Assembly (NCBI RefSeq): GCF_001735745.1
Contig: NZ_CP017260.1
Coordinates: 270,001-302,000 of the forward strand
Direction of reading: 5' to 3'
Source: Formosa sp. Hel1_33_131
GTDB taxonomy: Bacteria; Bacteroidota; Bacteroidia; Flavobacteriales; Flavobacteriaceae
Length of the DNA stretch: 32,000 bases
Shown: in pieces, positions 15,738 to 28,312 of the stretch
Position numbering within the stretch: position 1 is the stretch's first letter
How the letters are laid out: each line of letters starts with the position of its first letter
The notes under the pieces: generated by a model
The model's input: only the letters and a program-made list of their open reading frames with translations
Database searches by the model: none
Told to the model about the DNA's origin: nothing
Made by a program: the position numbers and the translations under genes

Positions 15738-16129
15738 GGGGTCGACTGGTATTGACAGCGAGATCTACTAAACTGTAAGCACGTCGTGTGATGATATTGA
15801 TACACGTAAAAGGCCATATCACCATTTAAACGGCGAGAATAACTACGCTTTAGCTGCTTAATCCGAATTATAGTAGGATGAGCCTAGTCCCGCAAGGCGG
15901 GAAAGCTAAATGTCTCCTGAAAGCCTTGGTTCACGGCGTTCAATTTTGAGACATCGTAAATGTCAACCTAGATTCTCTAAGGCTTTGGTAGGGATTCGAA
16001 ATTAAAAAAGCTAAGGAATAAGTGGGCCGTTTTTAGTCAGTTTATTTCCGACAATTAAATAAAAACTAAACGTGTAGAAAGCTTTTTATTAGCTTGTTTG
16101 GACCCGAGTTCGATTCTCGGCGACTCCAC
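15738..16129 (+). ncRNA. ssrA: tmRNA (transfer-messenger RNA, SsrA)
   Basis: The 5' end GGGGTCGACTGGTATTGACAGCGAG is typical of Bacteroidota tmRNA. The tag reading frame is at 15832-15861: GGC GAG AAT AAC TAC GCT TTA GCT GCT TAA = GENNYALAA*. The 3' end is GTAGAAAGC...GGACCCGAGTTCGATTCTCGGCGACTCCAC, with T-arm CCGAG/TTCGATT/CTCGG. The acceptor strand CGACTCC pairs with the 5' GGGGTCG. CCA is not fully encoded (ACT). Confidence 0.93.
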
Positions 16130-16290
16130 TTTGAAGCACAGCAAAGCTGTGAATAAACCCTTAAAAAAGCCCTGCAAATTTATTTGTAAGGGCTTTTGTA
16201 GGTTTAGACACCTGGGCTGAAAGCACAGTTTGCTGTATTTCCTAAAAGGGAGCTAAGAGAGAAACCGAAGGTTAATCTAGGCGACTCCAC
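16124..16290. repeat. 167-bp direct repeat, copy A (starts in the last 6 nt of ssrA, ends in a second copy of the tmRNA 3' end)
   Basis: Identical to 20703-20869 at 165/167 positions with no indels (differences at 16261 g/a and 16279 a/c). Confidence 0.95.
16164..16198 (+). terminator. Likely ssrA terminator hairpin (inside repeat copy A)
   Basis: AAAAAAGCCCT-(15-nt loop)-AGGGCTTTT. The AGCCCT/AGGGCT stem (16168-16173 / 16189-16194) is extended by the A/T runs. The U-tail is short. Confidence 0.45.
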
Positions 16291-16364
16291 TTTTTATTCC
16301 CAAGAATAATTTTTTATACTTGGGAGTAATTTTTTCTAAAAACAGCTAAATCAGACCTAAAAAA

Positions 16365-16391
16365 GTTCGACTTCACTCCCCTCTGCTCCAC
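16365..16391 (+). repeat. tmRNA-3'-end-like 27-mer, variant copy 1 (GTTCGA-N15-CTCCAC)
   Basis: GTTCGACTTCACTCCCCTCTGCTCCAC. It shares GTTCGA and CTCCAC with the genuine end (16108-16129) but has a 15-nt rather than 10-nt middle. Confidence 0.7.
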
Positions 16392-16573
16392 TTTTTATTC
16401 TCAAGAATAATTTTTTATTTTTGGTAATAATTATTTGATTATTTCAAGAAAATTAGTTCTTATTAAACTTTAAATTAAATCAACAATATCAAATTGTTAT
16501 AAAAATAGCACATAATTACAAAAAAATACCACCCTTGTAGAGTGGTATTTTAATAATTTAACTAGAGTTTCTT

Positions 16574-19500
16574 TTAAAACGCCCGTACAGCACGTACAGC
16601 TTTTGAATTATTAGTTGAGTGGTTTGCTCCAGGGCTATTAGAAGAAGTTCCAAAACCATTTGCCATATTAACAAAATATGCGTTACCGTAACCAGGTTGA
16701 GTGGAACTCCAATAATCATTACCGCCCCACATTGGAGAAATATTTGCTTTAGCTAAATAAATTAATTCTAACTCTCTAATAGTGGGTAAGCGCCAATCCA
16801 TAAATTTAGCGCCGTTAGTATCGTGTCTTGTGATATCATTTAAAAGATTATCAATTGGATACCATGTAGAGACACCTTGGTCTTGCATTGCGACCACCAA
16901 ACCGTGTTTTCCACCATCACGGACTTCAATTACAAACCCACCTAACTCTGCATAGAAAGTGTTGACACTATATACAGAATCTGAACCACTTGATGGAGTC
17001 GTCCATGTAGGAACTCCTGTTCCCGAGGATGTTAATACCTGCCCCGATGAACCTGCATTATTATTTGGCATAAGTGCACCATTGAATTTAATATTGCCTG
17101 CAACATCTAACTTTTCGGTTGGTGAATTAGTTCCTATTCCAACTTTACCATCATTCTTTATTATCATTTTAGTGTCTGATAATCCATAATCATTGGCGTT
17201 AGTATAGCTATTTAGTATAAAACGTAAATCCGTTCTACCCCAATTACTAATTCCTGATGCAACAATAGCCGTTTTATTAATACCACCTGCTCTCAACATA
17301 AGGTGAGCCTCATCACCCTCACCATACGCATTAATTAATGCTTTAGCATCACCTAAAGCAGCCTTTACATGTAAAAGTTGTGCAGGACTAACTGTCCCAA
17401 TACCAACATTTGTACCATCATCATAAATTGAGCTATTTCCTAGTACTGTTGAAGACCCATCGAATTTGGCTATCATATTACCAGTTCCTGAACCGCTAAC
17501 CCCTGCCGAAGAAGTTGTCCACGATAGTGCTCCAGAACCATCCGTTGTTAAAACCTGTCCGCTTGTACCGTCAGTGTTTGGAATTGTAATCTCTCCTGCA
17601 GTTATTGATCCACTTGTTTTTACATTCGTAACACTTGTATTACCCAATTGAACTGTATTATCGCCAGAGCCAATAGCACCTTTACCTATTACAGTTTCAT
17701 TATTTGCATTAGGTGAACTCACATTTGCATCAAGTCCAATCAAAGTGTTGTTTGTACCTGTTGTTATCGATTCTCCTGCTCTTTGTCCTAAACCAGTATT
17801 ATTGCTTCCTGTAGAAACGTTAAGCATTGTTTGATTTCCTATTGATGTATTAGCAATTCCTGTAGTTAATGAAAACATATTTTCGGCACCCAAAGCTGTA
17901 TTTCCACTACCTGTTGATAATGCTCTCATATTGTAGTATCCAATTGCAGTATTGTTATCAAACCCAGTTCCTGAGTAAGATTCGAGAGCTCTCGATCCTA
18001 TTGCAGTATTTCGCTTTCCTGTTCCCGAACCCATCGAAGATCCGATGGCTAAATTGTTATCGCCATCACCAGATCCTGTGCCAAAATATAAGCCATCAAC
18101 AGTAAGACTAGTCGTTATTGTTGTGTTGTCAGGCAATCCAACGGTGGTTGTAGAATCAGATGTAGAAACTTCAATTTCATTTACTGTTCCATTAATTGTT
18201 TCTGCCGAAGAAGTTGTCCACGAAAGTGTTCCAGAACCATCTGTTGTTAAAACTTGATTGGCATTACCAGTCGTATTCGGATAGGTGTTTCCACTAGCAA
18301 TTAATGTTGGAGTGGTTACCGTTCCTGTAAAGGTTGGTGAAGCAATATTAGCTTTTAAATCTATTGCCGTATTTTGGGTGGTTTGCTCGGCGGTAATCGC
18401 AGACAAAGAACTTGTTGTAGTACCACTCACAGCACGAATAGCACGAACAGCACTTGAAGAGTGCTTAGCGTTATCATTGACCTGACCTCCATTATTGAAA
18501 TTCTGTTTCCATGCGCGATTATTAGCAACTTCCGAAGAAGTCCAGTATACGGTAGCTGAAAATGGTGTAAATCCAGAGATTGCATCTAACGTTGGTTTTT
18601 TTATATACATCTCATTTAATTCGTCTTTTGAAGGAAAAAACCAGTCGGTATAACCTCCACCATTATATGCCCTTGCTAAACCTGCAGCATAACTCGTTTC
18701 CGTTTCACCTTGGGCGTTTATAATAGCCGTTGTATTGACTGCTCCAGTTCCTATCGCGGTACCTGTTGCTCCAGTTGTGATGTGAGTGCCATTGTACCAT
18801 CGAATCCCTGTACTCTGGTCTTCTATAGCACTAACTAAACCCTTAGTGTTATCTGTTGGGTCTATCCAAAATACAAATCCGCCCCCTACAAAATCACCAA
18901 TAGATAATGGCTGAGCTACTTGACCATTATTAATAATATCTGATAGAGCAGCAATTTCACTTGTATCTGCATCTGCACCTGCTGGACCGATTTGACCTTG
19001 AGCCCCTGTTGGACCTACCTGACCTACTGGACCTGAAACTGTTGAGTCCGCACCAGCTGGACCTTGAGCACCTTGATTTCCTGTTGGGCCGATTGGACCC
19101 GCTAGGCCTTGGGCTCCTTGATTTCCTTGAGCTCCTGCTGGACCGATTGGACCTGCCTGACCTACTGGACCTTGAACACCTTGAGCTCCTGCTGGACCGA
19201 TTGGACCTTGAGCGCCATCAGCACCATCTGCACCTGCTGGGCCTGGAGCACCTTGATTTCCTTGAGCTCCTGTTGGACCTATTGGACCTGCCTGACCTAC
19301 TGGACCTACTGGACCTACTGGACCTAGAACTGTTGAATCCGCGCCAACTGGACCTTGAACACCTTGATTTCCTTGAGCTCCTGTTGGACCTATTGGACCC
19401 TGAGCACCAGGAGCTCCTGCAGCACCTATACTTCCTGTTGGACCTATTGGACCCTGAGTACCAGTCTCGCCTTGTATTCCTTGGTCGCCTTGTACACCTT

Positions 19501-19843
19501 GAGCACCATCAACTCCGTCTTGACCATCAACACCTGCTGGTCCTGGAGCACCTTGATTTCCTTGAGGACCTGCTGGACCGGCTACACCATCAATTTTTGC
19601 CCAAGCCGTTCCGTCATAAAAATAAAACCCTGATACTTCATCCGTTTGATAAATCATCAACCCTGAAGCTGGTGATACAATTGCATCTCGCTGCGTCTGT
19701 GTGAGTCTTGGAATTAAAATTCCACCTGTAGTGGATTCAATCTCTAATGCCGAAGAGGCATCAGGGTTATTTGTGTTGATACCTACTTGTGCGTAACCCA
19801 ATGCTGTGAACAGCATAAGTGCTATTAATGTGATTTTTTTCAT
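16574..19843 (-). CDS. 1089-aa secreted mosaic fibre/adhesin: N-terminal VGINT..PR.T module, collagen-like triple-helix repeats, DUF1566 (Lcl C-terminal-like) domain, tail-fibre-like and YadA-head-like repeats, second DUF1566 domain
   Basis: Signal peptide MKKITLIALMLFTALGYAQ. 66 G-X-Y triplets span aa 86-291. DUF1566-like blocks are GGFVFWID...YTDWFFPSKDELNEMY...YWTSSE...AVRAIRAV and GGFVIEV..GLVVA...FMDWRLPTIRELELIY..YWSST...AVRAVRAF. The motif SGQVLTtdGSG.lSWTT occurs 4 times, NTAIG/NTALG/NTSIG/NTGLG/NTLIG repeats are present, and VGIGT.sP...L.V motifs match tail-fibre-like proteins. Confidence 0.88.
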   Translation of the reverse strand: MKKITLIALMLFTALGYAQVGINTNNPDASSALEIESTTGGILIPRLTQTQRDAIVSPASGLMIYQTDEVSGFYFYDGTAWAKIDGVAGPAGPQGNQGAPGPAGVDGQDGVDGAQGVQGDQGIQGETGTQGPIGPTGSIGAAGAPGAQGPIGPTGAQGNQGVQGPVGADSTVLGPVGPVGPVGQAGPIGPTGAQGNQGAPGPAGADGADGAQGPIGPAGAQGVQGPVGQAGPIGPAGAQGNQGAQGLAGPIGPTGNQGAQGPAGADSTVSGPVGQVGPTGAQGQIGPAGADADTSEIAALSDIINNGQVAQPLSIGDFVGGGFVFWIDPTDNTKGLVSAIEDQSTGIRWYNGTHITTGATGTAIGTGAVNTTAIINAQGETETSYAAGLARAYNGGGYTDWFFPSKDELNEMYIKKPTLDAISGFTPFSATVYWTSSEVANNRAWKQNFNNGGQVNDNAKHSSSAVRAIRAVSGTTTSSLSAITAEQTTQNTAIDLKANIASPTFTGTVTTPTLIASGNTYPNTTGNANQVLTTDGSGTLSWTTSSAETINGTVNEIEVSTSDSTTTVGLPDNTTITTSLTVDGLYFGTGSGDGDNNLAIGSSMGSGTGKRNTAIGSRALESYSGTGFDNNTAIGYYNMRALSTGSGNTALGAENMFSLTTGIANTSIGNQTMLNVSTGSNNTGLGQRAGESITTGTNNTLIGLDANVSSPNANNETVIGKGAIGSGDNTVQLGNTSVTNVKTSGSITAGEITIPNTDGTSGQVLTTDGSGALSWTTSSAGVSGSGTGNMIAKFDGSSTVLGNSSIYDDGTNVGIGTVSPAQLLHVKAALGDAKALINAYGEGDEAHLMLRAGGINKTAIVASGISNWGRTDLRFILNSYTNANDYGLSDTKMIIKNDGKVGIGTNSPTEKLDVAGNIKFNGALMPNNNAGSSGQVLTSSGTGVPTWTTPSSGSDSVYSVNTFYAELGGFVIEVRDGGKHGLVVAMQDQGVSTWYPIDNLLNDITRHDTNGAKFMDWRLPTIRELELIYLAKANISPMWGGNDYWSSTQPGYGNAYFVNMANGFGTSSNSPGANHSTNNSKAVRAVRAF
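18971..19588 (-). repeat. Collagen-like G-X-Y coding tract (28 + 31 + 7 triplets separated by GAD-STV[L/S] breaks) with internal DNA repeats
   Basis: Strict 9-nt/3-aa periodicity. Plus-strand segments such as GCACCTTGATTTCCTTGAGCTCCTG.TGGACC.ATTGGACCTGCCTGACCTACTGGACC recur. The tract is clearly GC-richer than the flanks. Confidence 0.9.
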
Positions 19844-19844
19844 C

Positions 19845-20543
19845 TTATTGTTTTATGATTTTAAATGTTGAAATTTGGTTTTGTGTGTTTTGTAAATTCA
19901 GTAAATAAACACCTGTTGGTAAGTCTGTAACATCCAGTTCTAAGGCATTTGATTCTAATATTTTTTGACCTGCTGTATTGAACAATGTTGAGTGTTGCGC
20001 AAAATTAGAAACTATAATTATTTTATCGGTTGTTGGATTTGGGTAAACACGTACGATATCATTTAGTGTTTCTGTTTTTATGGTGAGTGTTGCTGATGAA
20101 GCACTTGCAGTAATTTTTTTAAATCCAACAAGTTCTGTGAAATCATAACTCAATATGTTGTTTGTATCATCAATGTTTGGAGCAACATTGTTCCAAACAT
20201 CGTTGGCATCCAATACTTCTAGAACTAATTCTGCTTCGTCAATACCATTGAGTTCAGAATCTAAATAACGAAAAGAAAGTATTCCTGAATAATCAGTTAG
20301 TTCATTTGATAATTCATAAACTCTTTCAATACTAGAGTTATCTCCAACAACTATTGGGGTAGTCGATCGCGCAATAGAATTAGGCCCTGTTATGGTATGA
20401 GATACACTAGGGGATAATTCTAATCCGTCTACTGAAACAGAACTATTGGAGTTAACACTAACAAAACTTCCTGATTCAATGCTGAGAGTTTGGCTAAAAC
20501 AAAAGGAAGTTGCTAGCAATAAAGCTATTAGTAATTTGTGCAT
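19845..20543 (-). CDS. Small secreted protein with T9SS type A C-terminal sorting domain, first gene of the fibre operon
   Basis: 232 aa with signal peptide MHKLLIALLLATSFCFSQ and C-terminus VRVYPNPTTDKIII...LPTGVYLLNLQN...FKIIKQ. Its stop (19845-19847) lies 1 nt from the ATG of the 1089-aa gene (19843). Confidence 0.8.
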   Translation of the reverse strand: MHKLLIALLLATSFCFSQTLSIESGSFVSVNSNSSVSVDGLELSPSVSHTITGPNSIARSTTPIVVGDNSSIERVYELSNELTDYSGILSFRYLDSELNGIDEAELVLEVLDANDVWNNVAPNIDDTNNILSYDFTELVGFKKITASASSATLTIKTETLNDIVRVYPNPTTDKIIIVSNFAQHSTLFNTAGQKILESNALELDVTDLPTGVYLLNLQNTQNQISTFKIIKQ

Positions 20544-20681
20544 GGTTAAACGTTAAATTGGTAATGCAATTTAGTTTAAAAATTATAAACATTTAATACA
20601 TATTTGATATATTATAATAAAAGTAATGATAATTATATTTTATTTGAAAGAATTGAACCTCTTTAAATCCTCAACAAAATA

Positions 20682-20708
20682 GTTCGATTTTACTCCCTTT
20701 AGCTCCAC
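20682..20708 (+). repeat. tmRNA-3'-end-like 27-mer, variant copy 2
   Basis: GTTCGATTTTACTCCCTTTAGCTCCAC, directly abutting repeat copy B. Confidence 0.7.
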
Positions 20709-20869
20709 TTTGAAGCACAGCAAAGCTGTGAATAAACCCTTAAAAAAGCCCTGCAAATTTATTTGTAAGGGCTTTTGTAGGTTTAGACACCTGGGCTGAA
20801 AGCACAGTTTGCTGTATTTCCTAAAAGGGAGCTAAGAGAAAAACCGAAGGTTAATCTCGGCGACTCCAC
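20703..20869. repeat. 167-bp direct repeat, copy B (ends in an exact 15-nt copy of the tmRNA 3' end, TCTCGGCGACTCCAC)
   Basis: 165/167 identical to 16124-16290. 20855-20869 equals 16115-16129 exactly. Confidence 0.95.
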
Positions 20870-20946
20870 AAATTATTGACTATCTTGAACTTTCAAAAAG
20901 ATATGTAATAACCCATTTATTAATTTAAAATTAAGACTTTTAAGTA

Positions 20947-21225
20947 ATGAAATATCCAAATTTATTTAAAGCATTTAATACGCATATAGATTTAGACATT
21001 GATGCATATCTAGATTTAGAAGACCGTTTAGTCCACAAAAAAATAGGTAAAAAAGATTTTTTATTTAAACAAGGGGAAGTGGTTAATTACTTACCATTTA
21101 TTAACGATGGACTAATGATAAATAATATAATAGATAAGGATGGAGAAGAACATGTAATCCAAATTCGGGGGACTGGATTATGGCTTGGTGATTTGTACAG
21201 CTTTTTTTCAGGTGCAACAACATGA
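20947..21225 (+). pseudogene. Crp/Fnr-family regulator fragment: N-terminal cNMP-binding half only
   Basis: 92 codons. KKDFLFKQGEVVNYLPFINDGLMINNIIDKDGEEHVIQIRGTGLWLGDLYSFFSG matches the cNMP-binding beta-roll. The HTH half is missing. The frame ends where an opposing gene fragment begins (~21215-21225). Confidence 0.6.
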
Positions 21226-21380
21226 GAAATGTCAAAAACTGTTAAATCATTATTGATGGCTTCTTCCGTAAAGTTTTTAACAAAAGGAGTTCCTGGAATA
21301 TTAGAAAATTGGGCATGGAGGGGGTTGCTAACAATGAAAATTGCTAGAAAAACGAGACTTCTGATTGTATTTTTAATCAT
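21222..21380 (-). pseudogene. 5' fragment (~53 codons) of a secreted protein gene, truncated against the Crp-like fragment
   Basis: MIKNTIRSLVFLAIFIVSNPLHAQ (signal peptide) is followed by FSNIPGTPFVKNFTEEAINNDLTVFDISH. The rest of the 97-codon ORF (21087-21221) is only the antisense of the Crp-like fragment. Confidence 0.45.
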
Positions 21381-21558
21381 TAATGATAAATAAGTAACTT
21401 TTAAAACGAAACCAAATATACAATTTATGACGAAACCGTATTATTCAACATGATAATTTATTCATAGTTAAGAGGTAAACCTGAGCGCACATAATATAAA
21501 ATTACATTTGACAAGAAATTAAAATAAATTGATTAATTTTGCAACTTACTTTTGTAAA

Positions 21559-21888
21559 ATGTATTTAAACAATCAACTTGCAAAAAATATTGCTGCGTTA
21601 TTGCTTTTATTAGCTTTAATACTTCCGACTGCAATTCAGTTTAGCCATATGATTGAAGGGCATGAAGGTGATACTTGTAATAACCTGAGTACTCACATAC
21701 ATAAATCTGAAAAGAATTGCGAAATATGTGCTTTCCATATTACATCTTTCAACTATGATATTGCTAAATATCCTGATTTACTTTTAGCACAAATTTCTGT
21801 TAAGGTCAGTACAACCTATACCCCATTACAATTATACTTCTCTACCTTAACAAATAATCAGTTACGCGGCCCCCCAGTATTTTCTTAA
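21559..21888 (+). CDS. Small membrane-anchored His/Cys-rich protein, first gene of the TonB-receptor operon
   Basis: I prefer ATG 21559 (109 aa) over the TTG at 21529. It has one N-terminal TM helix (IAALLLLLALILPTAI), then HMIEGHEGDTC..THIH...CEICAFH and a C-terminal RGPP. It lies 39 nt upstream of the receptor gene. Confidence 0.55.
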   Translation: MYLNNQLAKNIAALLLLLALILPTAIQFSHMIEGHEGDTCNNLSTHIHKSEKNCEICAFHITSFNYDIAKYPDLLLAQISVKVSTTYTPLQLYFSTLTNNQLRGPPVFS

Positions 21889-21927
21889 TATACGAACAAA
21901 CACGTTTAATATTAATTAAGAATTTAT

Positions 21928-24327
21928 ATGCGCAACTATGCATTATTGGTACTGCTATTTAGCAGTATTACATCGTTGTCACAAAATTGTGACAATTCAC
22001 TTTCAGGTATAGTAACAGATATTCACGATGGCCAATTGCTCATCGGAGTCACCCTTATTATTGCAGACACTGAACAAACTGTTCAGACGGGTTTAGATGG
22101 AGAGTTTTCTTTTTCAAACCTTTGTAATAACACCTATTTCATACAGGTTTCACACCCCTATTGTTTGACAAAAGGATTTACTGTTAGAATTTCTGGGAAT
22201 ACCAAAAAGTCATTTAAGTTAGAGCATCATATTGAAGAACTCAATCAAATTACGATTGAAGGGAAAGCCTACAGTGACAAATCCAAAACACTTCTCGAGA
22301 ATACTATTAACAAAGAAGAGTTGGAGCGTTTTAATAGTGGCTCTCTTGGTGATGCTCTAAATAGTTTGAGTGGTGTATCGTCACTAAATACAGGGAGCAC
22401 GGTCGTAAAACCAATGATTAATGGACTTCACAGCAGTCGTGTGGTCATCGTTAATAATGGGGTGCGGATGGAAGACCAAGAATGGGGGGCAGAACACGCA
22501 CCTAATATTGACATAAATTCCGTCAGTAACCTTACCGTCATAAAAGGAGCTGGTGCACTTCAATACAGTGGAGATGCTGTAGGGGGCGTAATTATTGCTG
22601 AAGCTTCTAAAGTTCCGGTAAAAGACAGTTTGTATGGCAAAACTTTGATGACTGCAACTAGTAATGGGCGTGGCGCCTCGTTGAGCTCAAAATTGACTAA
22701 AAGTTATCAAAATGGATGGTATGCAACCCTGCAAGGATCCTTAAAACGCTTTGGAGATTTTGAAGCTCCTGGCTATGTATTGAGCAATACAGGGATTTTT
22801 GAGAGAAGTGCTTCTTTACAAGTAGGTTTTAACCGTTTTGACTATGGTATTGAGGGGTATTATTCAATCTTTAAAAATGAGATTGGAATTTTAGCGGCCT
22901 CACATTTGGGCGGTGCTCAAGATCAAATTAGAGCCATCGACAGCGATGTACCACTAATTATAAACGATTTCACATATACGATCAATGCACCTAGGCAAGA
23001 TGTCACCCATCATTTGGCAACTATAAAAGGATTTAAACGGTTTGAAAACTTTGGAAAACTTAGCATCCAATACGATTTTCAAAGAAACAATCGGCTTGAG
23101 TTTGACATCAGGCGTGGGGATGACAAAAAGAAGGCTGCATCAGATTTACAATTAGATACGCATACCGTTTTGCTAGATCTAGATGCACCTTTGTCTGATA
23201 AAATTGTATTAAAAACAGGGCTCATGGCGAAGTATCAAAAAAACGTTGCAAATCCCGAAACGGGTGTGAGACGGTTGATCCCTGATTTTCAGATGTATGA
23301 CTTAGGAATGTACTTTGTAATGGACTACCAATTAAATGACCAATGGCTTCTGGAAGCCGGGGGCCGTTTTGATTACTCCTTTATGGATGTTTTTAAATTT
23401 TACAGAACCTCCTTTTGGGAATTACGTAATTATGACCAGCTATTTCCTGAAATTGTGCTTGAAGAATTGGAGAATCAAATTTTAACCAATCCGCAACTAA
23501 ATTTTAATAACGGTTCAGCTACCTTAGGAGCCAACTATACATTTGGTGAGGATTATAAATTGTTTTTCAACTATTCCATGGCATCTCGAGCGCCAAATTC
23601 CTCAGAACTTTTTAGTGAAGGCTTGCACCATTCTGCTTCTCGAATCGAACTGGGAGATTTAAGCTTCAATTCTGAAATAGCACATAAAGTTGCATTGACA
23701 TTTCAAAAGGAGAACGATCTATTTAGTTTTAATGTAAACCCTTATATTAATACCATTTCTGACTTTATAGTGAATGAACCTACAGAAATTCAGCAGACGT
23801 TGAGAGGCAACTTTCAGGTGTGGGAATACCGCCAAACGGATGCTCAATTGTTAGGTGTAGATGTGGATGCCTCCTATGCTTTTGCTAAAAACGTTCGTTT
23901 AAACAGTCAATTCTCTTTAGTCAAAGGCTATGACCAAACTTTAGACGCGCCACTAATCGGAATGCCGCCTGTAAACATTAGCAACGAAATTGTATATCAA
24001 AATCCTGAATTCAATAACATTCGTCTGTCTTTACAAAGCGCATATCATTTTAAACAAAATGACTATCCCAATACCAATTTTGAAGTGTTCATACCAGAAA
24101 CCGAAACATATAAATTGGTGGATGTAAGCTCTACACCAGACGCGTATCATTTGCTTAATTTTAATTCGAGTATCGATATTAATCTCAACCAAAAATCAAA
24201 ATTAACGGTAGGACTTAGAATTACAAACGTATTGAACACTTCGTATCGAAACTACCTGAACCGTTTGCGCTATTATGCAGATGATTTGGGCAGAAACTTT
24301 TTATTTAATCTTAAAATCAATTATTAA
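21928..24327 (+). CDS. TonB-dependent outer-membrane receptor with N-terminal carboxypeptidase-regulatory-like domain
   Basis: 799 aa with a signal peptide, the CarbopepD_reg-like LSGIVTDIHDGQLLIGVTLII...GEFSFSNL, a plug (VVKPMINGLHSSRVVIVNNGVRMEDQEWGAEHAP) and a long beta-barrel ending in an aromatic residue (..FNLKINY). Confidence 0.9.
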   Translation: MRNYALLVLLFSSITSLSQNCDNSLSGIVTDIHDGQLLIGVTLIIADTEQTVQTGLDGEFSFSNLCNNTYFIQVSHPYCLTKGFTVRISGNTKKSFKLEHHIEELNQITIEGKAYSDKSKTLLENTINKEELERFNSGSLGDALNSLSGVSSLNTGSTVVKPMINGLHSSRVVIVNNGVRMEDQEWGAEHAPNIDINSVSNLTVIKGAGALQYSGDAVGGVIIAEASKVPVKDSLYGKTLMTATSNGRGASLSSKLTKSYQNGWYATLQGSLKRFGDFEAPGYVLSNTGIFERSASLQVGFNRFDYGIEGYYSIFKNEIGILAASHLGGAQDQIRAIDSDVPLIINDFTYTINAPRQDVTHHLATIKGFKRFENFGKLSIQYDFQRNNRLEFDIRRGDDKKKAASDLQLDTHTVLLDLDAPLSDKIVLKTGLMAKYQKNVANPETGVRRLIPDFQMYDLGMYFVMDYQLNDQWLLEAGGRFDYSFMDVFKFYRTSFWELRNYDQLFPEIVLEELENQILTNPQLNFNNGSATLGANYTFGEDYKLFFNYSMASRAPNSSELFSEGLHHSASRIELGDLSFNSEIAHKVALTFQKENDLFSFNVNPYINTISDFIVNEPTEIQQTLRGNFQVWEYRQTDAQLLGVDVDASYAFAKNVRLNSQFSLVKGYDQTLDAPLIGMPPVNISNEIVYQNPEFNNIRLSLQSAYHFKQNDYPNTNFEVFIPETETYKLVDVSSTPDAYHLLNFNSSIDINLNQKSKLTVGLRITNVLNTSYRNYLNRLRYYADDLGRNFLFNLKINY

Positions 24328-25055: not shown

Positions 25056-25074
25056 ATAAATCCTTTCCAAAACA

Positions 25075-25101
25075 GTTCGACTTTAGGCCCTTTGCCTCCA
25101 C
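25075..25101 (+). repeat. tmRNA-3'-end-like 27-mer, variant copy 3
   Basis: GTTCGACTTTAGGCCCTTTGCCTCCAC, preceded by AAAACA as in the other variant copies. Confidence 0.7.
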
Positions 25102-25260
25102 GATTAAGCGCAGTGCGACTGCGAATTAAAATTCAAAAAACTTACCAAGCTTGCTTGTGTAAGTTTTTTTGTTTTAAGGACAAAGCTCTTTTAGACCTTA
25201 TTGGACTCGTTTGTAACGAGTGCAAAATCAACCCTAAAAATTGGTTTCATCTATTGTAAG
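25096..25260. repeat. Diverged third copy of the 167-bp repeat family (hairpin, terminator-like hairpin, hairpin)
   Basis: Same order of elements after CTCCAC as in copies A and B: the small hairpin CGCAGT-GCG-ACTGCG (25109-25123), then A6-CTTAC..GTAAG-T7 (25135-25170), TTTAGAC, the hairpin ACTCGTT-TGT-AACGAGT (25205-25221) and CCTAAAA. Alignment done by eye. Confidence 0.45.
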
Positions 25261-25498
25261 CATTGTATGATGCACTCAGAAAATTAGCACTAAAAAGTAC
25301 TTAGAAATTAAAACAATAAATTTGATAATAATAGAGATTTATGCCAATTTAATTATGACAACGCTACATTCTTAGATAAATTTCATTAATATTCTTTTTA
25401 TTATCTTACCTTTATTGAACCTCTTTATCTTAAACTAATTTAACCTTTATATTAATTATGTTGTAAAAACTGAGTATAAATCTTTTTTTAATCAACAA

Positions 25499-28066
25499 TT
25501 GAAATTGTATAAATCTTCTTTATTTAGTTTTAACATTTACACGTTATTTTTAGTGTTTATTATGTTGCCTCTAACTGTTTTAAGTCAAGAATACGGTCTT
25601 TCTTTTAAAGGTCAAGATTTTCTTCTCGACGAAAGAACAAGCTTAGATATAACTTCAAATAAGCCATTGATTGTAAAGGATGAACTTGAATTAACTTTTG
25701 ATTTAAAGGTAGAATTAATAAAAAGAAAAGGTAATTTCGGATACATTTTTAGAGCTATTAATGAAGATAATAAAAATATAGATTTACTGCTCTCTAATAC
25801 TTCAACAAAAAAACTAATTATAGTTGTTGGTGATACTGAAACAATTATACCCATAAACGACTCTACATTTTCTAATAAAAAATGGAGCACGATTCATATA
25901 AAATTTTCGCTGTCAAAAAATGAATTGGTTTTTTCGATAGCTGGCTCCAAACCCATCAAAAAATCCGCAGTTTTTAAAAGTAAAGAATCATACAAAATCT
26001 TTTTTGGTGCAAATAATTATAAGGAATTTTCAACTTCAGATGTTCCGAGTGGAATAAGTATTAGAGACGTTAAGTTAACTCAAGGCACTAAACTAATCGC
26101 TCACTACCCTTTAAATCAATGTGGAGGAAACGAGGCTATAGATATAATAAATAACAACAATGCTACTGTAAAAAATGCAGACTGGCTGTTATGCTATCAT
26201 AAATCTTGGGAAGAAAATTTAATATCTGAAGTTGATGGCGTTCAATTATTGACTTTTGACAAAAATTTAGGAGAGTTTTATATTTTAAACAAAACAACAC
26301 TAACTAAATACAATCCCAAAGAGAAATCATTCAAGACCTATCCTTTTGATAAAGATACTTTAGAAATTTCTTTAGATCACAGAATTCTTTTTGATCACAA
26401 ACAAAAAAAATTATACTGCTACCTTGCAGATAAGAATCAGATTTCTGAATTTGATTTTGAAACTAAGCGTTGGGATAATTATTCTCTATTTAAAAAACAA
26501 CCTTTGAAGCAAATATACCAGCATCATAATGGTTTGTTTAGTCCAAAAGACAATTCTATATATATCCTAGGGGGTTATGGTCAATTCACATATCAAAACC
26601 AAGTAAAAAAGGTTGATCTTAGTTCTAAAACTTGGGAAAACATCCCTCATGATAATAAAGTATTTAAACCACGATATCTTTCTGGGGCAACCATCTACAA
26701 AGACTCCATTTATGTCTTAGGTGGCTATGGAAGTGAAAGCGGTAAACAATTAGTAAACCCTAAAAGTTATTTTGATTTTTTGAGGTACGACATTGAAAGC
26801 AAAACATTTAAAAAACAATATGAGGTAACTAAAATTTCTGAAGAAATGATCTTTGGAAGCTCCATTGTGATAGACAGTACTAATAAAAACTATTATGGCT
26901 TAATCTCCGATAAGTCTAGATCTAATGGATATCTTAAACTTGCACAAGGAAATCTATCAAGTCCAGAATTTAAAATTGTAGCAGATTCTCTTCCTTATAA
27001 ATTTACAGACACTCAATCTTTTGTGGATCTATTTTTTGATGAAAACGCAAAAAAACTTTACGTCTACACCTCTTTCTTGAACTCAAACAATCAAACAGAT
27101 TTTGGTATTTACAGCCTTAATTACCCTCATATTCCTGTAATTGAAGCCACTCAAAGCAATTCTAAATCAACAACAAGTTTTTGGGCTCTTATTATAATTG
27201 GTCTATTTATATCAGCTATGATTGGTCTTTTAATAATAAAATATTTCAAGAAAAAACAAATTGAAACTAGTGAAGAAAAAATAATTCCTCAGGAACACAA
27301 AAAAGAAGAACCTTTAGTTGAGCTAGATTATCCGATTGTATTTTTTGGTGGTTTTCAAATGTTTGATAAAAAAGGAAACGATCTTACAGGGAAATTTACG
27401 CCCTTAATAAAGGAACTCTTTTTAGTTCTTTGGCTTTATACACATAAAAATAACAAAGGAATTTCTTCTCAAAAGTTAAAAGACTTGTTATGGTATGATA
27501 AATCTGATAAAAGTGCTCAAAATAATAGAGCTGTTAATATCACCAAACTCAAAACCATTCTTAAACAGTTAGGAGATTTTTCAATTAGTAAAAAAACGGG
27601 CTATTGGATTATCGAAAATAATTCTGATGTTTTAGTTAACGATTACTCTCAATTAAATAAAAATCTACTTAAAAGCAAACCAACCAAAGAGGATATTATT
27701 CGTACGATATCCATAACCAAAAATGGCGCTTTTCTGAACAACTTAGATTACACTTGGTTAGATTCTTTTAAACAGAACATTACCGATTTAATAGTCAATA
27801 ACTTTATGAATTTTGCATTAAAGCTAGACATAGAGGAAGATCTTGATTTTGCTATTGATTTAGCGGATTGTATTTTTAATTTTGACACTACAAATGAAAT
27901 CGCTGTGTTCTTAAAATGTAAAGTATATTACATTAAAGGCAATCACAGCTTAGCTAATGATACGTTTAATAAATTTTTAAAAGAGTACAATATCCTATAC
28001 GGACAAGAATTTGAACACAACTTTAATGAATTCATTTCTCTAGATATCAATAATTTACACTTGTAA
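25499..28066 (+). CDS. Membrane-tethered one-component regulator: signal peptide, LamG/ConA-like domain, Kelch-type beta-propeller, TM helix, cytoplasmic SARP-type winged-helix + BTAD domain
   Basis: 855 aa. TTG 25499 is the first canonical start after the in-frame stop at 25436-25438, and the ATG at 25562 would remove the signal peptide. Kelch-like IYILGGYG / IYVLGGYG repeats are present. The TM helix FWALIIIGLFISAMIGLLII covers aa 561-580 (nt 27179-27238). The cytoplasmic part IVFFGGFQMFDKKGNDL..PLIKELFLVLWLY...ISSQKLKDLLWYD....AQNNRAVNITKLKTIL matches the SARP/OmpR-type wHTH pattern. The BTAD-like helical region follows (GAFLNNLDYTWLDSF...EIAVFLKCKVYYIKGNHSLANDTFNKF). Confidence 0.7.
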   Translation: MKLYKSSLFSFNIYTLFLVFIMLPLTVLSQEYGLSFKGQDFLLDERTSLDITSNKPLIVKDELELTFDLKVELIKRKGNFGYIFRAINEDNKNIDLLLSNTSTKKLIIVVGDTETIIPINDSTFSNKKWSTIHIKFSLSKNELVFSIAGSKPIKKSAVFKSKESYKIFFGANNYKEFSTSDVPSGISIRDVKLTQGTKLIAHYPLNQCGGNEAIDIINNNNATVKNADWLLCYHKSWEENLISEVDGVQLLTFDKNLGEFYILNKTTLTKYNPKEKSFKTYPFDKDTLEISLDHRILFDHKQKKLYCYLADKNQISEFDFETKRWDNYSLFKKQPLKQIYQHHNGLFSPKDNSIYILGGYGQFTYQNQVKKVDLSSKTWENIPHDNKVFKPRYLSGATIYKDSIYVLGGYGSESGKQLVNPKSYFDFLRYDIESKTFKKQYEVTKISEEMIFGSSIVIDSTNKNYYGLISDKSRSNGYLKLAQGNLSSPEFKIVADSLPYKFTDTQSFVDLFFDENAKKLYVYTSFLNSNNQTDFGIYSLNYPHIPVIEATQSNSKSTTSFWALIIIGLFISAMIGLLIIKYFKKKQIETSEEKIIPQEHKKEEPLVELDYPIVFFGGFQMFDKKGNDLTGKFTPLIKELFLVLWLYTHKNNKGISSQKLKDLLWYDKSDKSAQNNRAVNITKLKTILKQLGDFSISKKTGYWIIENNSDVLVNDYSQLNKNLLKSKPTKEDIIRTISITKNGAFLNNLDYTWLDSFKQNITDLIVNNFMNFALKLDIEEDLDFAIDLADCIFNFDTTNEIAVFLKCKVYYIKGNHSLANDTFNKFLKEYNILYGQEFEHNFNEFISLDINNLHL

Positions 28067-28165
28067 TTGACATATAAGCACCCATACTACAGACTATTCT
28101 AAGCAAAAATTATAGTTTACATTTATTTATAGTAAAAAGTGAATTTTTCTCATAAAGGCTCATTA

Positions 28166-28195
28166 ATTAATCAATTATTAAGGGAAAATTAAGGG
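28166..28195 (+). promoter_or_regulatory. Three direct repeats with exact 11-bp phasing (ATTAATCA, ATTAAGGG, ATTAAGGG) upstream of the beta-helix gene; candidate operator
   Basis: The units start at 28166, 28177 and 28188. A near-consensus -7 box CATATTTG (28204-28211) starts 8 nt after the last repeat. Confidence 0.3.
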
Positions 28196-28312
28196 TGCAT
28201 CGTCATATTTGTTTGAATCAAAACCTCAACTAATTCAAGATAAGTTGAGTTAAATAATAACCAATTACTTTTAATAACTGATGACCAAAGGCCATCACAA
28301 AACACAATCAAG

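Follow-up and report, generated by a model that had tools for sequence, protein, structure and literature searches.

A mosaic collagen-like protein with two Lcl_C domains and a phage-fibre-like shaft, probably a secreted adhesin, encoded in a strain-variable cassette at ssrA of Formosa sp. Hel1_33_131

FORMB_02740, one of two genes in a cassette at the 3' end of ssrA, encodes a protein that joins a collagen-like region, two Lcl_C/DUF1566 domains and a phage-fibre-like shaft, as proposed by the first-pass annotation that had called it a mosaic fibre. We consider it probable that this protein is a Sec-exported, homotrimeric, extracellular fibre acting as a glycan-binding adhesin. It would be one of a widespread kind of bacterial surface protein that combines collagen with knobs of sugar-binding type and pieces of phage tail fibres.

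The gene occupies positions 16574..19843 on the - strand of the window, the whole stretch of 32,000 nucleotides that we analysed, and the earlier call of a 1089-aa ORF with these boundaries is exact (ATG start, 1089 codons plus the stop codon). Its product is identical to the database protein FORMB_02740 of Formosa sp. Hel1_33_131, a common marine bacterium, where it is named "conserved hypothetical protein (DUF1566)" or "Lcl domain-containing". Considering this identity and the detection of the protein by mass spectrometry, the gene is real. The AF2 monomer model of the whole protein is poor overall (mean pLDDT 48), and local confidence is given below for the segments concerned.

Modules of the fibre protein

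We looked at the modules from the N-terminus onwards, all on the - strand. The signal peptide read in the first-pass annotation is borne out by the sequence (residues 1-18, 19790..19843, MKKITLIALMLFTALGYA|Q at the putative cleavage site), by a YAQ|VG junction kept across 27 relatives and by a helix at residues 2-17 of the AF2 model; it would be removed after GYA. The module that follows had been described as conserved in Bacteroidota, and it is indeed a real one, corresponding to PF26696 "PTL_trimer" in the precomputed Pfam annotation of FORMB_02740 and its relatives (residues 19-85, 19589..19789). Our own profile of this module scored 2e-36 on the fibre ORF and matches 52,010 representative proteins, and residues 41-88 are modelled with pLDDT 77-93. 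The collagen-like stalk (residues 86-291, 18971..19588; Pfam Collagen 1.4e-26) contains exactly the 66 G-X-Y triplets claimed, in runs of 28, 31 and 7 triplets with two 4-residue breaks, STVL and STVS, between them. Judging from the sequence, the stalk would be about 57 nm long if triple-helical, and the PTL_trimer module together with the collagen region may zip three chains into a rod with two kinks.

Lcl_C (PF07603) was found twice, in agreement with the two DUF1566 domains proposed earlier. Both matches exceed the Pfam gathering score when the segments are scanned separately: 5.9e-12 at residues 339-470 for the internal domain (residues ~305-475, 18419..18931) and 1.4e-09 at residues ~990-1087 for the C-terminal one (residues 955-1089, 16577..16981), with which the protein ends as ...AVRAVRAF. 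The C-terminal domain is only 33% identical to the first. It matches the C-terminal domain of Legionella pneumophila Lcl, which is trimeric and of solved structure (8q4e), by phmmer (1e-14) and by Foldseek (E 4e-9, 34% identity, target-normalised TM 0.80). It is also similar to the tip of the Bdellovibrio fibre Bd2740, a trimeric C-type lectin (Foldseek probability 0.97), and matches the NCBIfam FimD tip adhesin at 5.6e-9. The top NCBIfam match of the whole fibre is adhesin_Lcl, at 183 bits against an equivalog cut-off of 500 bits, with an alignment spanning residues 86-471. These results support the earlier reading of collagen followed by DUF1566 as the architecture of Lcl, and suggest that the stalk would be followed by a first trimeric C-type-lectin-like knob, while a second, different Lcl_C knob would form the distal binding tip. 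Both domains are slightly acidic (K+R 10-11 vs D+E 12-14), whereas Lcl binds GAG through a basic face; therefore, the ligand is not transferable by homology, and a glycan is only the presumed one.

As DUF1566 is among the target domains of diversity-generating retroelements (PMC4159848, PMC6642488), we asked whether the fibre could be the variable target protein of such an element. The chance of this is negligible: the Pfam scan found no reverse transcriptase among the ORFs of the window, and neither Lcl_C coding region has a copy in the 32 kb that could serve as a template repeat, which rules out this explanation for the window.

The region between the two knobs is of another type. Residues 476-580 (18104..18418) carry the DLKANIASPTFTG motif and the first SGQVLT-type motif (~525-543), and are followed by a beta-strand repeat shaft at residues 581-750 (17594..18103), modelled by AF2 as regular short strands with pLDDT 55-70, in which N[TS]xxG repeats recur ~17 residues apart. 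A second SGQVLT-type motif, revealed by the motif scan and by an internal DNA repeat (18202-18317 vs 17503-17618, 71% match), occupies residues 751-780 (17504..17593); next come a stretch between two VGIGT..P...L.V motifs (residues 781-930, 17054..17503) and a third SGQVLT-type motif from the motif scan (residues 931-954, 16982..17053). Four SGQVLT motifs had been counted in the first reading, but only three clear SGQVLT..G.G..SWTT motifs were found (at ~525, 762 and 934), while the VGIGT..P...L.V motifs are present as described, at 813 and 901; the wider pattern VGI[GN]T also occurs at residue 20. The stretch at residues 781-930, where AF2 confidence is low, resembles the MYRF auto-processing domain weakly (E 0.6).

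Results showed that this shaft is related to phage fibres, a likeness that the first-pass annotation had noted. PHROG 4636 "tail spike" matches it at 6.9e-17, tblastn retrieves tail spike/fibre genes of Flavobacterium, Pelagibacter and Roseobacter phages down to 1e-10 (32-43% identity of residues ~580-775 to annotated genes), Foldseek aligns it with a phage S74-type fibre (5e-8), and further PHROG tail-fibre matches cover residues 886-950. The N[TS]AIG/NTALG repeats had also been compared with YadA heads. The repeats themselves are there, beginning at residue 612 with their ~17-residue spacing, but Pfam YadA_head has no match on FORMB_02740 even at E<=10, and a YadA-head identity was rejected in favour of the phage tail-spike/tail-fibre match. 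True YadA_head repeats fill the same slot in two relatives, P0016 and P0083 (27-30 bits vs a cut-off of 25), and also occur in P0108. The shaft is 76% identical to that of a Polaribacter fibre (L016), the remaining parts of which are just 27-41% identical. A beta-structured shaft of phage-tail-fibre type would separate the two knobs in our model, and the fibre gene is probably remodelled through exchange of modules, which one would expect of a surface structure when selection favours diversity.

A conserved partner gene and the cassette at ssrA

Immediately upstream of the fibre gene lies FORMB_02750 (19845..20543, - strand, 232 aa), the first gene of an apparent bicistron. This conserved type IX secretion system (T9SS) partner had been overlooked in the first reading. 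It consists of a signal peptide, a beta-sandwich N-domain and a T9SS type-A C-terminal sorting domain (Pfam Por_Secre_tail, 1.6e-10), the latter matching the RemA C-terminal domain 8gl6_D in AF2 and Foldseek analyses. We found 616 homologues, the best 120 of which are 64-100% identical. The stop codon of FORMB_02750 is 1 nt ahead of the fibre ATG, a junction that recurs in related loci, and in 20 of 21 contexts examined the partner is followed by a signal-peptide fibre gene after a 1-nt gap or with a 4-nt overlap. No terminator-like site was found at the partner-fibre junction, and a terminator-like hairpin (16523..16551, - strand; 13-bp stem plus T run) lies 22 nt past the fibre stop codon. 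The two genes appear to be co-transcribed and are probably translationally coupled. The fibre gene standing behind the partner is variable among contexts.

We propose that the partner, a small T9SS cargo protein, may help the fibre to dock at, or exit through, the outer membrane. Among 79 genome loci having an N-terminal PTL module, just 9 have the partner upstream, and the partner pairs equally with fibres of different mature N-terminus; this equal pairing leaves a specific partner-to-PTL contact unsupported.

The first-pass annotation had placed the gene in an island beside ssrA, and the repeats confirm this. The tmRNA gene, the integration target (15738..16129, + strand; ARAGORN; Rfam RF00023, 131 bits), is followed by a 175-nt direct repeat (16124..16298, +) that takes in the final 6 nt of ssrA plus the adjoining 3' region, where the ssrA 3' end occurs a second time (16276-16290). 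The right copy (20703..20877, +) is 97% identical and carries a perfect ssrA 3'-end 15-mer at 20855-20869. The repeat spacing gives an insert of 4,579 bp holding the fibre and partner genes. The empty site is seen in a metagenome contig (L098) that lacks exactly this segment, joining 16290 directly to the right flank, with flanks 99.6-100% identical to those of the cassette; the cassette is strain-variable, and only some strains have it. Two copies of a conserved att-like element of ~45 nt, which resembles the T-loop and acceptor end of tmRNA, were also found, one at the fibre-distal cassette end (16348..16391, +) and one just upstream of the partner promoter region (20665..20708, +). In our reading, the gene pair makes up a 4.6-kb cassette that was inserted at the ssrA 3' end.

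Prophages are classically found at ssrA, marked by att-like repeats, and collagen repeats are frequent in phage fibres, which the shaft resembles; the earlier reading had taken the location to fit a phage origin. We asked whether FORMB_02740 could be the remnant tail-fibre gene of a phage, tailocin or injection system from a prophage integrated at ssrA, and find this very improbable. The insert contains two genes alone, neither of them an integrase gene or a structural or lysis gene of a phage, and both proteins have signal peptides, which are incompatible with cytoplasmic virion assembly. Moreover, the partner is T9SS cargo and was missing from 2.9 million viral contigs, the same gene pair occurs in many non-phage contexts, and the fibre gene needs no induction to be expressed in culture. 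Together these points largely rule out a phage remnant, and the island is no prophage.

Expression and location of the fibre

Published proteomes of Formosa B cultures contain both cassette proteins, and the Helgoland 2009 metaproteome includes the fibre as well. The fibre was detected in culture supernatant (0.24 and 0.11 %riBAQ) and in the soluble cell fraction (0.13 %riBAQ), compared with 0.0003-0.02 in the membrane fraction. Because the supernatant also holds cytoplasmic enzymes, its detection there does not prove active secretion. Outer-membrane proteins occur in the same fraction.

Near absence from the membrane-enriched proteome could mean that the fibre is not anchored to the cell but released, with a role in matrix or aggregation, where an adhesive module at either end would let it cross-link cells, particles or polysaccharide. 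Two relatives behind the same partner, L005 (438 aa) and L006 (399 aa), are dumbbells with PTL_trimer at each end of a collagen stalk; the PTL module stands at the C-terminal end of ORFs in viral contigs, suggesting that this module could act as a binding tip in its own right, and the profile search found up to 9-11 PTL modules within one protein. However, the fractionation is ambiguous, considering cytoplasmic contamination of the supernatant and the easy shearing of long fibres, and its expression together with a surface-attached T9SS protein suggests that the fibre is connected to the cell surface. We regard a released fibre as unlikely.

Pfam and NCBIfam scans of FORMB_02740 revealed no Por_Secre_tail, CHU_C, lipobox or barrel domain, and the protein contains no cysteine. 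Lacking a T9SS C-terminal domain, lipobox and beta-barrel, it fits no known Bacteroidota outer-membrane route. This would agree with a periplasmic protein or outer-membrane-vesicle cargo forming no surface appendage, as would its abundance in the soluble cell fraction and the outer-membrane proteins in the supernatant, which suggest vesicles or lysis. On the contrary, a ~57-nm stalk plus shaft far exceeds the width of the periplasm, the homologue Lcl (PMC11162425) and the analogous Bdellovibrio MAT fibres (PMC10769870) are surface displayed, and lectin tips with strain-level hypervariability fit an exposed structure. A periplasmic or vesicle location is, in our opinion, improbable, and we retain the extracellular adhesin as the preferred reading.

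Comparison with known systems

The combination of modules had been put forward as no described family. The exact full-length architecture is rare, with ~5 clusters covering at least 88% of the query, but the PTL_trimer, Collagen and Lcl_C core is frequent in Bacteroidota and carries Pfam and NCBI labels already, and the proposal is only half right.

Phage fibres share with FORMB_02740 the shaft (PHROG 4636, the tail spike of Flavobacterium phage vB_FspM_immuto, S74-type fibres), collagen repeats and SGQVLT-type motifs matching PHROG tail-fibre families, and a modular and mosaic evolution. In contrast with them, the fibre has a signal peptide and a T9SS cargo gene as partner, is made constitutively by the bacterium and lacks an S74 chaperone and a phage neighbourhood; its VGIGT..P...L.V motifs are of the type preceding S74 chaperone domains, but no S74 domain follows them. 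Bacillus BclA and Streptococcus Scl1/Scl2 also hold a globular head off the cell on a collagen triple-helix stalk, and NCBIfam SclA/SclB models match the collagen part of the fibre, with BclA among the PDB matches. This likeness is confined to the collagen region, as their anchors (LPXTG, exosporium basal layer) and heads (C1q-like, V domain) differ. Trimeric autotransporter adhesins of the YadA family are likewise repetitive trimeric fibres, whereas FORMB_02740 has neither a YadA_head match nor a C-terminal membrane anchor barrel, and its repeat period of ~17 residues differs from the 14 residues of the YadA head.

Lcl, a lollipop-shaped trimer that occurs on the surface of the cell as well as in the supernatant (PMC11162425), shares with the fibre a signal peptide, a collagen-like stalk and then an Lcl_C/DUF1566 domain ending ...VRAVRAF. 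Lcl differs in having one C-terminal domain, an N-terminal amphipathic helix anchor, type II secretion and a basic face for sulphated GAG, while FORMB_02740, from a free-living marine flavobacterium, carries PTL_trimer as its N-module, has an internal Lcl_C domain that diverges from the C-terminal one, contains a 480-residue phage-fibre-like insert and comes with a T9SS partner gene.

The concept of chimeric, trimeric fibres made by bacteria and tipped with lectins has been published for the mosaic adhesive trimer (MAT) proteins of Bdellovibrio bacteriovorus (PMC10769870), and the non-S74 subgroup, e.g. Bd2740 (PDB 8oks), can be likened to the fibre. They are chromosomally encoded, phage-tail-fibre-like proteins of ~600-1100 aa with swappable C-terminal tips on a repetitive shaft; the likeness rests on the C-terminal tip structure and this general design. 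In the passages describing them, MAT fibres have no collagen stalk or internal lectin knob, help a predator to recognise its prey, are deposited in a vesicle and come with no described T9SS partner or tmRNA cassette. Overall, we take FORMB_02740 to be most likely a secreted, trimeric fibre that binds glycans, similar in kind to Lcl and the Bdellovibrio MAT fibres.

Modular composition of the fibre

The ORF lies at 16574-19843 on the minus strand and encodes 1089 aa, exactly as the first-pass annotation had placed it. The product is identical to a public-database protein of Formosa sp. Hel1_33_131, FORMB_02740, described as 'conserved hypothetical protein (DUF1566)' or 'Lcl domain-containing protein' and detected by mass spectrometry. 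The domain order could be followed along the whole chain, starting with a signal peptide that ends in the conserved YAQ|VG junction; an N-terminal glutamine after signal-peptidase cleavage is typical of Bacteroidota. A module of roughly 65 residues comes next (PTL_trimer, PF26696, residues 19-85), followed by a collagen stalk recognised by Pfam Collagen (1.4e-26), in which the 66 G-X-Y triplets already reported were counted on the translation as runs of 28, 31 and 7, broken by STVL and STVS. This collagen region would be ~57 nm long if triple-helical. Both predicted DUF1566 domains were recovered as Pfam Lcl_C (PF07603), at residues 339-470 (5.9e-12) and ~990-1087 (1.4e-09), each above the Pfam gathering score when its segment was scanned alone; their identity is only 33%, which argues against a recent duplication. 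Between them, N[TS]xxG repeats run from residue 612 on with a spacing of ~17 residues. The expected VGINT/VGIGT motifs were present at residues 20, 813 and 901. The SGQVLT..G.G..SWTT motif was also found, but in three clear copies (~525, 762 and 934) and not in the four first counted. The fibre contains no cysteine, and its full-length AF2 monomer (mean pLDDT 48) was too poor for reading the shaft or the 781-930 region. Overall, the protein can be divided into an Lcl-like part (residues 1-475) and, fused to it, a phage-fibre-like part (476-1089) with the second lectin knob at its end. The 247-aa ORF on the strand opposite the collagen repeats (18961-19704, plus strand), which has many L, D and H residues, is a translation artefact of the 9-nt periodic collagen repeat and not a gene.

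The C-terminal domain is genuinely homologous to that of Lcl, the collagen-like adhesin of Legionella pneumophila, for which a structure is available (PDB 8q4e), with a phmmer E-value of 1e-14 and, for its AF2 model, a Foldseek E-value of 4e-9, 34% identity and a target-normalised TM of 0.80. The 8q4e chain is labelled 'HbP1' in the PDB sequence file, while the Foldseek description of the entry is the Lcl C-terminal domain. Weaker structural neighbours (Foldseek) were the invasin InvE and the trimeric C-type-lectin tip of Bdellovibrio Bd2740, whose C-terminal domain (8oks) matched with a probability of 0.97, an E-value of 0.08, a target-normalised TM of 0.58 and 15% identity. NCBIfam also gave a match here to its model of FimD, a fimbrial tip adhesin.

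The shaft is of the phage-fibre type, so that the tail-fibre likeness noticed at first sight proved well founded. It matched PHROG 4636 'tail spike' (6.9e-17) and several tail-fibre PHROGs, tblastn against phages of Flavobacterium, Pelagibacter and Roseobacter recovered annotated tail spike or tail fibre genes that are 32-43% identical to it, and its top viral structural neighbour (BFVD) was a phage S74-type fibre (5e-8). The VGIGT..P...L.V motif is weakly like the stretch ahead of S74 auto-processing domains (MYRF, E 0.6); Pfam found no Peptidase_S74 domain in the fibre, and one in the relative P0108. The proposed YadA-head-like repeats did not hold up, as PF05658 gave no match on the 307-aa middle segment even at E ≤ 10. 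Moreover, Pfam and NCBIfam found no family of C-terminal membrane-anchor beta-barrels in the fibre, whose C-terminus is Lcl_C. A YadA-type trimeric autotransporter, which the repeats had brought to mind, was therefore ruled out. YadA_head nevertheless scored above the Pfam threshold in P0108 and, at the equivalent position, in the relatives P0016 and P0083; these shaft modules are thus interchangeable.

Relatives of the fibre differ by shuffling of such modules, and the blocks they have in common range widely in identity. Coverage of the query reached 88% or more in only about five clusters (57-100% identity). In L015, a MAG that bears the label of the same species, the version is 538 aa long and made of PTL, collagen and one Lcl_C only, and P0004 has extra copies of a ~390-aa shaft super-module. 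This super-module (repeat shaft, SGQVLT motif and VGIGT region) was seen in two or three tandem copies in P0004 (1252 aa), P0003, P0007 and P0010, indicating that fibre length varies by whole modules among close relatives. P0004 and P0009, whose first residue is an internal Met, resemble gene calls that were interrupted in or close to the collagen repeats. Tips are also exchanged, with differing Lcl_C tips in P0007 and P0010-P0014 and Fib_succ_major tips in other relatives, and a Polaribacter fibre shares a repeat shaft 76% identical to that of the window, its remaining parts being only 27-41% identical.

Linkage with a T9SS cargo gene and the PTL_trimer module

Directly upstream of the fibre gene lies FORMB_02750 (19845-20543, minus strand, 232 aa; hereafter the partner), whose stop falls 1 nt before the fibre ATG. 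The two genes are apparently co-transcribed: no terminator-like site was found at their junction, and a 13-bp hairpin followed by a T run lies 3' of the fibre gene. In the partner, a signal peptide is followed by an N-domain that is all beta and by a T9SS sorting domain of type A (Pfam Por_Secre_tail, 1.6e-10). Its C-terminal model superposes on RemA-CTD in the T9SS complex 8gl6 and is the informative part, since the N-domain fold matched only generic beta-sandwiches. Among 616 partner homologues, the best 120 are 64-100% identical and nearly all 232-235 aa long; the partner is thus far better conserved than the fibre.

We compared 21 partner contexts, namely the window and the related loci L001-L011, L013, L014, L017-L019, L021, L022 and L024, of which L002 holds two pairs. 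A signal-peptide fibre gene came next after the partner in 20/21 of them, either 1 nt past its stop or with a 4-nt overlap. These fibres varied greatly and were built as PTL, collagen and Lcl_C (1026-1339 aa), as PTL, collagen and PTL (399-438 aa), or around Fib_succ_major (294 aa). Fib_succ_major proteins of 294-312 aa stand behind partner homologues at L007 (9704-10588) and L002 (9565-10503). The 294-aa protein of L007 has a signal peptide (MKKITLIALMLFTALGYAQ) identical to that of the window fibre and a different, phage-fibre-like mature N-terminus (GIELNGTISAE...DP..AQDAVTKAYID), which, at the level of sequence, points to a recombination just past the signal-peptide coding region. In three loci with an identical partner (P0148) and the same flanks (L003, L004 and L005), the gene behind the partner appears as 109+196 aa, as 176+211 aa or as one 438-aa ORF; these differences may be assembly errors in the collagen repeats or real variation in repeat length or frame.

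The N-terminal module of the fibre belongs to a large, uncharacterised family, with tens of thousands of PTL_trimer proteins across Bacteroidota. PF26696 is a precomputed Pfam annotation on the identical protein, a profile that we made of the module scored 2e-36 on the fibre ORF, and a profile search of 1.84 billion representative proteins returned 52,010 matches at E ≤ 0.001, often several per protein and often in very large proteins. AF2 models the module as a small helix (49-53) and three strands with pLDDT 77-93; a profile search of PDB sequences matched no solved structure, and our literature search found no paper on PF26696/PTL_trimer. In a scan of GTDB genomes the module stood directly after the signal peptide at 77/79 loci, spanning Flavobacteriaceae, Chitinophagaceae, Cytophagales, Saprospiraceae and Bacteroidales, and in other proteins it was found just ahead of a C-terminal Lcl_C domain. 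In nine IMG/VR contigs (L089-L097) it lay mostly at the extreme C-terminus of the ORF. Two of these contigs, L094 and L097, have PTL ORFs with phage-fibre-like N-termini and without a signal peptide; others among the PTL ORFs of these contigs start in a signal-peptide-like manner, so that some of these 'viral' contigs may be bacterial.

Three observations weaken the idea that PTL is a dedicated N-terminal cell anchor bound by the partner: giant proteins contain as many as 9-11 copies of the module and other proteins have it at their C-terminus, fibres with another mature N-terminus also follow the partner, and the partner is present at only 9/79 N-terminal-PTL fibre loci. This last count also indicates that the pairing marks a subgroup of marine Flavobacteriaceae and not the whole family. 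In other Flavobacteriales/Bacteroidetes MAGs (L036, L054, L064 and L071), the place of the T9SS partner just ahead of PTL-type fibre genes is taken by a conserved ORF of ~85-94 aa (...IIVALD.K...F..TDFE.I.FET...), whose end lies 0-40 nt from the start of the fibre gene.

Strain-level presence and absence at ssrA

The description of the fibre as island-borne was borne out more cleanly than expected, by direct repeats at the 3' end of the tmRNA gene ssrA (15738-16129, plus strand) and by an empty site. The last 15 nt of ssrA (TCTCGGCGACTCCAC, 16115-16129) recur at 20855-20869, and a 175-nt block (16124-16298) that begins within the terminal 6 nt of ssrA has a 97% identical copy at 20703-20877. 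A single contig (L098) came up when metagenome contigs were searched for the right junction; in it, a stretch matching window positions 15810-16290 (479/481) is joined directly to one matching 20703-21707 (1005/1005). With such flanks and a direct join, this contig represents the same locus minus the 4,579-bp segment carrying fibre and partner. Neither the stretch from 16130 to 21928 nor the window ORFs scanned with Pfam yielded an integrase or recombinase; presence and absence could reflect integration, with the recombinase encoded elsewhere, or else a deletion between the two repeats.

As the shaft resembles virion proteins, a prophage tail fibre was also considered. It was rejected because the insert holds two genes, none of them phage, because both proteins bear signal peptides, and because the partner is absent from viral contigs (IMG/VR). 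A signal peptide is at odds with the assembly of phage fibres in the cytoplasm. A variable protein of a diversity-generating retroelement (DGR) was likewise discarded, as we found no reverse transcriptase among the window ORFs (Pfam) and, in the 32-kb window, no template repeat for the variable region. PADLOC returned no anti-phage defence match for fibre or partner.

Related cassettes adjoin tRNA genes in L007/L009 (Gly, Leu), L017 (Leu, Gly), L014 (Ala) and L024 (Arg), the L002 cassette lies ~4-6 kb from a large serine recombinase and tRNA-Met, and a Polaribacter fibre gene lacking the partner (L016) has a tmRNA gene ~3 kb away. In the DNA examined from these related loci, no copies of tRNA 3' ends were found on the far side of the cassettes. 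A near-copy of the ssrA 3' end occurs 161 nt past the real end both in the window (16115-16290) and in the Polaribacter MAG L016 (10082-10260), indicating that the tmRNA-spacer-repeat unit predates the fibre insertion. To the right of the island, a 92-aa ORF with a partial cyclic-nucleotide-binding domain (20947-21225, plus strand; E 2e-4) looks like a truncated regulator gene and is overlapped by an antisense ORF (21087-21380, minus strand).

A conserved element of ~45 nt (AAATCCTCCCCAAAATAGTTCGAYTTYACTCCCTTTGGCTCCAC), resembling the T-loop and acceptor end of tmRNA/tRNA, with sharp borders and often followed by a hairpin, occurs at both cassette ends (16348-16391 and 20665-20708) and once more in the window at 25058-25101. 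Each of the 27 copies that we counted is oriented against the fibre genes, and many copies lie at cassette borders, including those of L001, L002, L003 and L010. The loci bearing the element (the window, L001 at 1135, 4751, 9834 and 13131, L002, L003-L006, L010, L012-L014, L016, L023 and L029) were all picked for their fibre genes, so the distribution of copies says nothing on cassette specificity. The element, for which no Rfam family matched, could serve as an att site or could instead be an intergenic repeat of a generic kind. The third window copy precedes a low-GC stretch (GC 0.28-0.31; 25058-29746 including the copy), whose products are a Kelch-repeat protein of 855 aa and a beta-helix protein of 477 aa that bears a T9SS sorting domain; this stretch, too, may be a variable cassette. 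Besides the partner, three T9SS cargo genes were noticed in the window, at 7-1695 (CHU_C type-B), 3842-5410 (PNGase-F-like, Por_Secre_tail) and 28313-29746 (beta-helix/PMP-repeat, Por_Secre_tail).

Expression, export and relation to known adhesive fibres

Protein abundances were taken from the supplementary tables of Unfried et al. 2018 (PMC6246565), where carbon-source sheets except glucose were assigned by file position. The fibre reached 0.24 (glucose) and 0.11 %riBAQ in the supernatant, 0.13 and 0.002 in the soluble cell fraction, and 0.0003 and 0.02 in the membrane-enriched fraction; the corresponding values for the partner were 0.10 and 0.04, about 0.01, and 0.09 and 0.06. On glucose, all three replicates had the fibre in the supernatant, and it was likewise detected in the Helgoland metaproteome of April 2009 (PMC6246565). 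These values indicate that the cells produce the fibre, that it is soluble and not bound to membranes, and that it gets into the medium; as cytoplasmic enzymes also occur in the supernatant fraction, its presence there is by itself no proof of secretion. SprA in the same tables indicates that a T9SS is present in the strain. A second DUF1566 protein, FORMB_11430, was abundant in the soluble fraction on glucose (1.04 %riBAQ; PMC6246565, Supplementary Table S2B).

The fibre has no T9SS domain, lipobox or barrel that would account for its passage through the outer membrane. Pfam and NCBIfam found neither Por_Secre_tail (type A) nor CHU_C (type B) on it, and no T9SS sorting domain appears among the precomputed Pfam domains of its 120 best relatives. 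The conservation of the partner and its tight coupling to the fibre gene would make it the obvious candidate helper for fibre export, and it might aid surface docking or export. Three fibre chains would assemble into one fibre, since collagen repeats need a trimer, the Lcl C-terminal domain is trimeric (PMC11162425) and phage-type shafts are trimeric as well. The two lectin knobs would bind glycans, with the distal C-terminal knob as the probable working tip.

We regard it as possible, though rather unlikely, that partner and fibre form an undescribed surface appendage of Bacteroidota, exported in a partner-dependent manner and traded as an integrase-less cassette with the 45-nt element as att site. 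A small T9SS cargo would then carry or dock, in a 'piggy-back' fashion, a phage-tail-fibre-derived fibre lacking a sorting domain, and the tmRNA-like element at cassette borders in several genera would serve exchange between strains. The lack of a recognised Bacteroidota export signal, the recovery from the supernatant and the tight coupling to a T9SS cargo make the locus a practical test case for partner-dependent export. It provides one expressed PTL_trimer protein, rebuilt from Lcl-type lectin knobs, collagen and phage-fibre modules, that differs by simple presence or absence between strains with near-identical flanks. Formosa sp. Hel1_33_131 is a recurrent and abundant responder to North Sea algal blooms (PMC6246565), and cell-surface display in such bloom bacteria affects attachment to algae and particles and probably phage and grazer pressure.

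The fibre most likely works like Lcl, by its collagen stalk and DUF1566 head, and like the mosaic adhesive trimer (MAT) fibres of Bdellovibrio (PMC10769870). It shares with Lcl the G-X-Y stalk and the C-terminal Lcl_C/DUF1566 head. The whole-protein score for NCBIfam NF046116 adhesin_Lcl was 183.4 bits against an equivalog cut-off of 500 bits, so that the fibre holds an Lcl domain but is no Lcl orthologue. Lcl has an N-terminal amphipathic-helix membrane anchor (PMC11162425), whereas the mature N-terminus of the fibre is PTL_trimer. Lcl also binds sulphated GAGs via lysines, whereas the Lcl_C domains of the fibre are slightly acidic and rich in aromatic residues (K+R 10-11 vs D+E 12-14 per domain in bulk composition), and the Lcl ligand cannot be copied to the fibre. 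MAT fibres are described as bacterial, phage-derived, mosaic and trimeric, with exchangeable tips and a non-S74 subgroup without a chaperone domain; the fibre likewise combines a long repetitive phage-fibre-like shaft with an exchangeable C-terminal tip and has no S74 chaperone. The earlier view that this is not a described family stands in part: we found no paper with this set of modules and a tmRNA-linked cassette, but every idea combined here is already known. If all of it holds, the locus extends Lcl, MAT fibres and tRNA/tmRNA islands and founds no new category.
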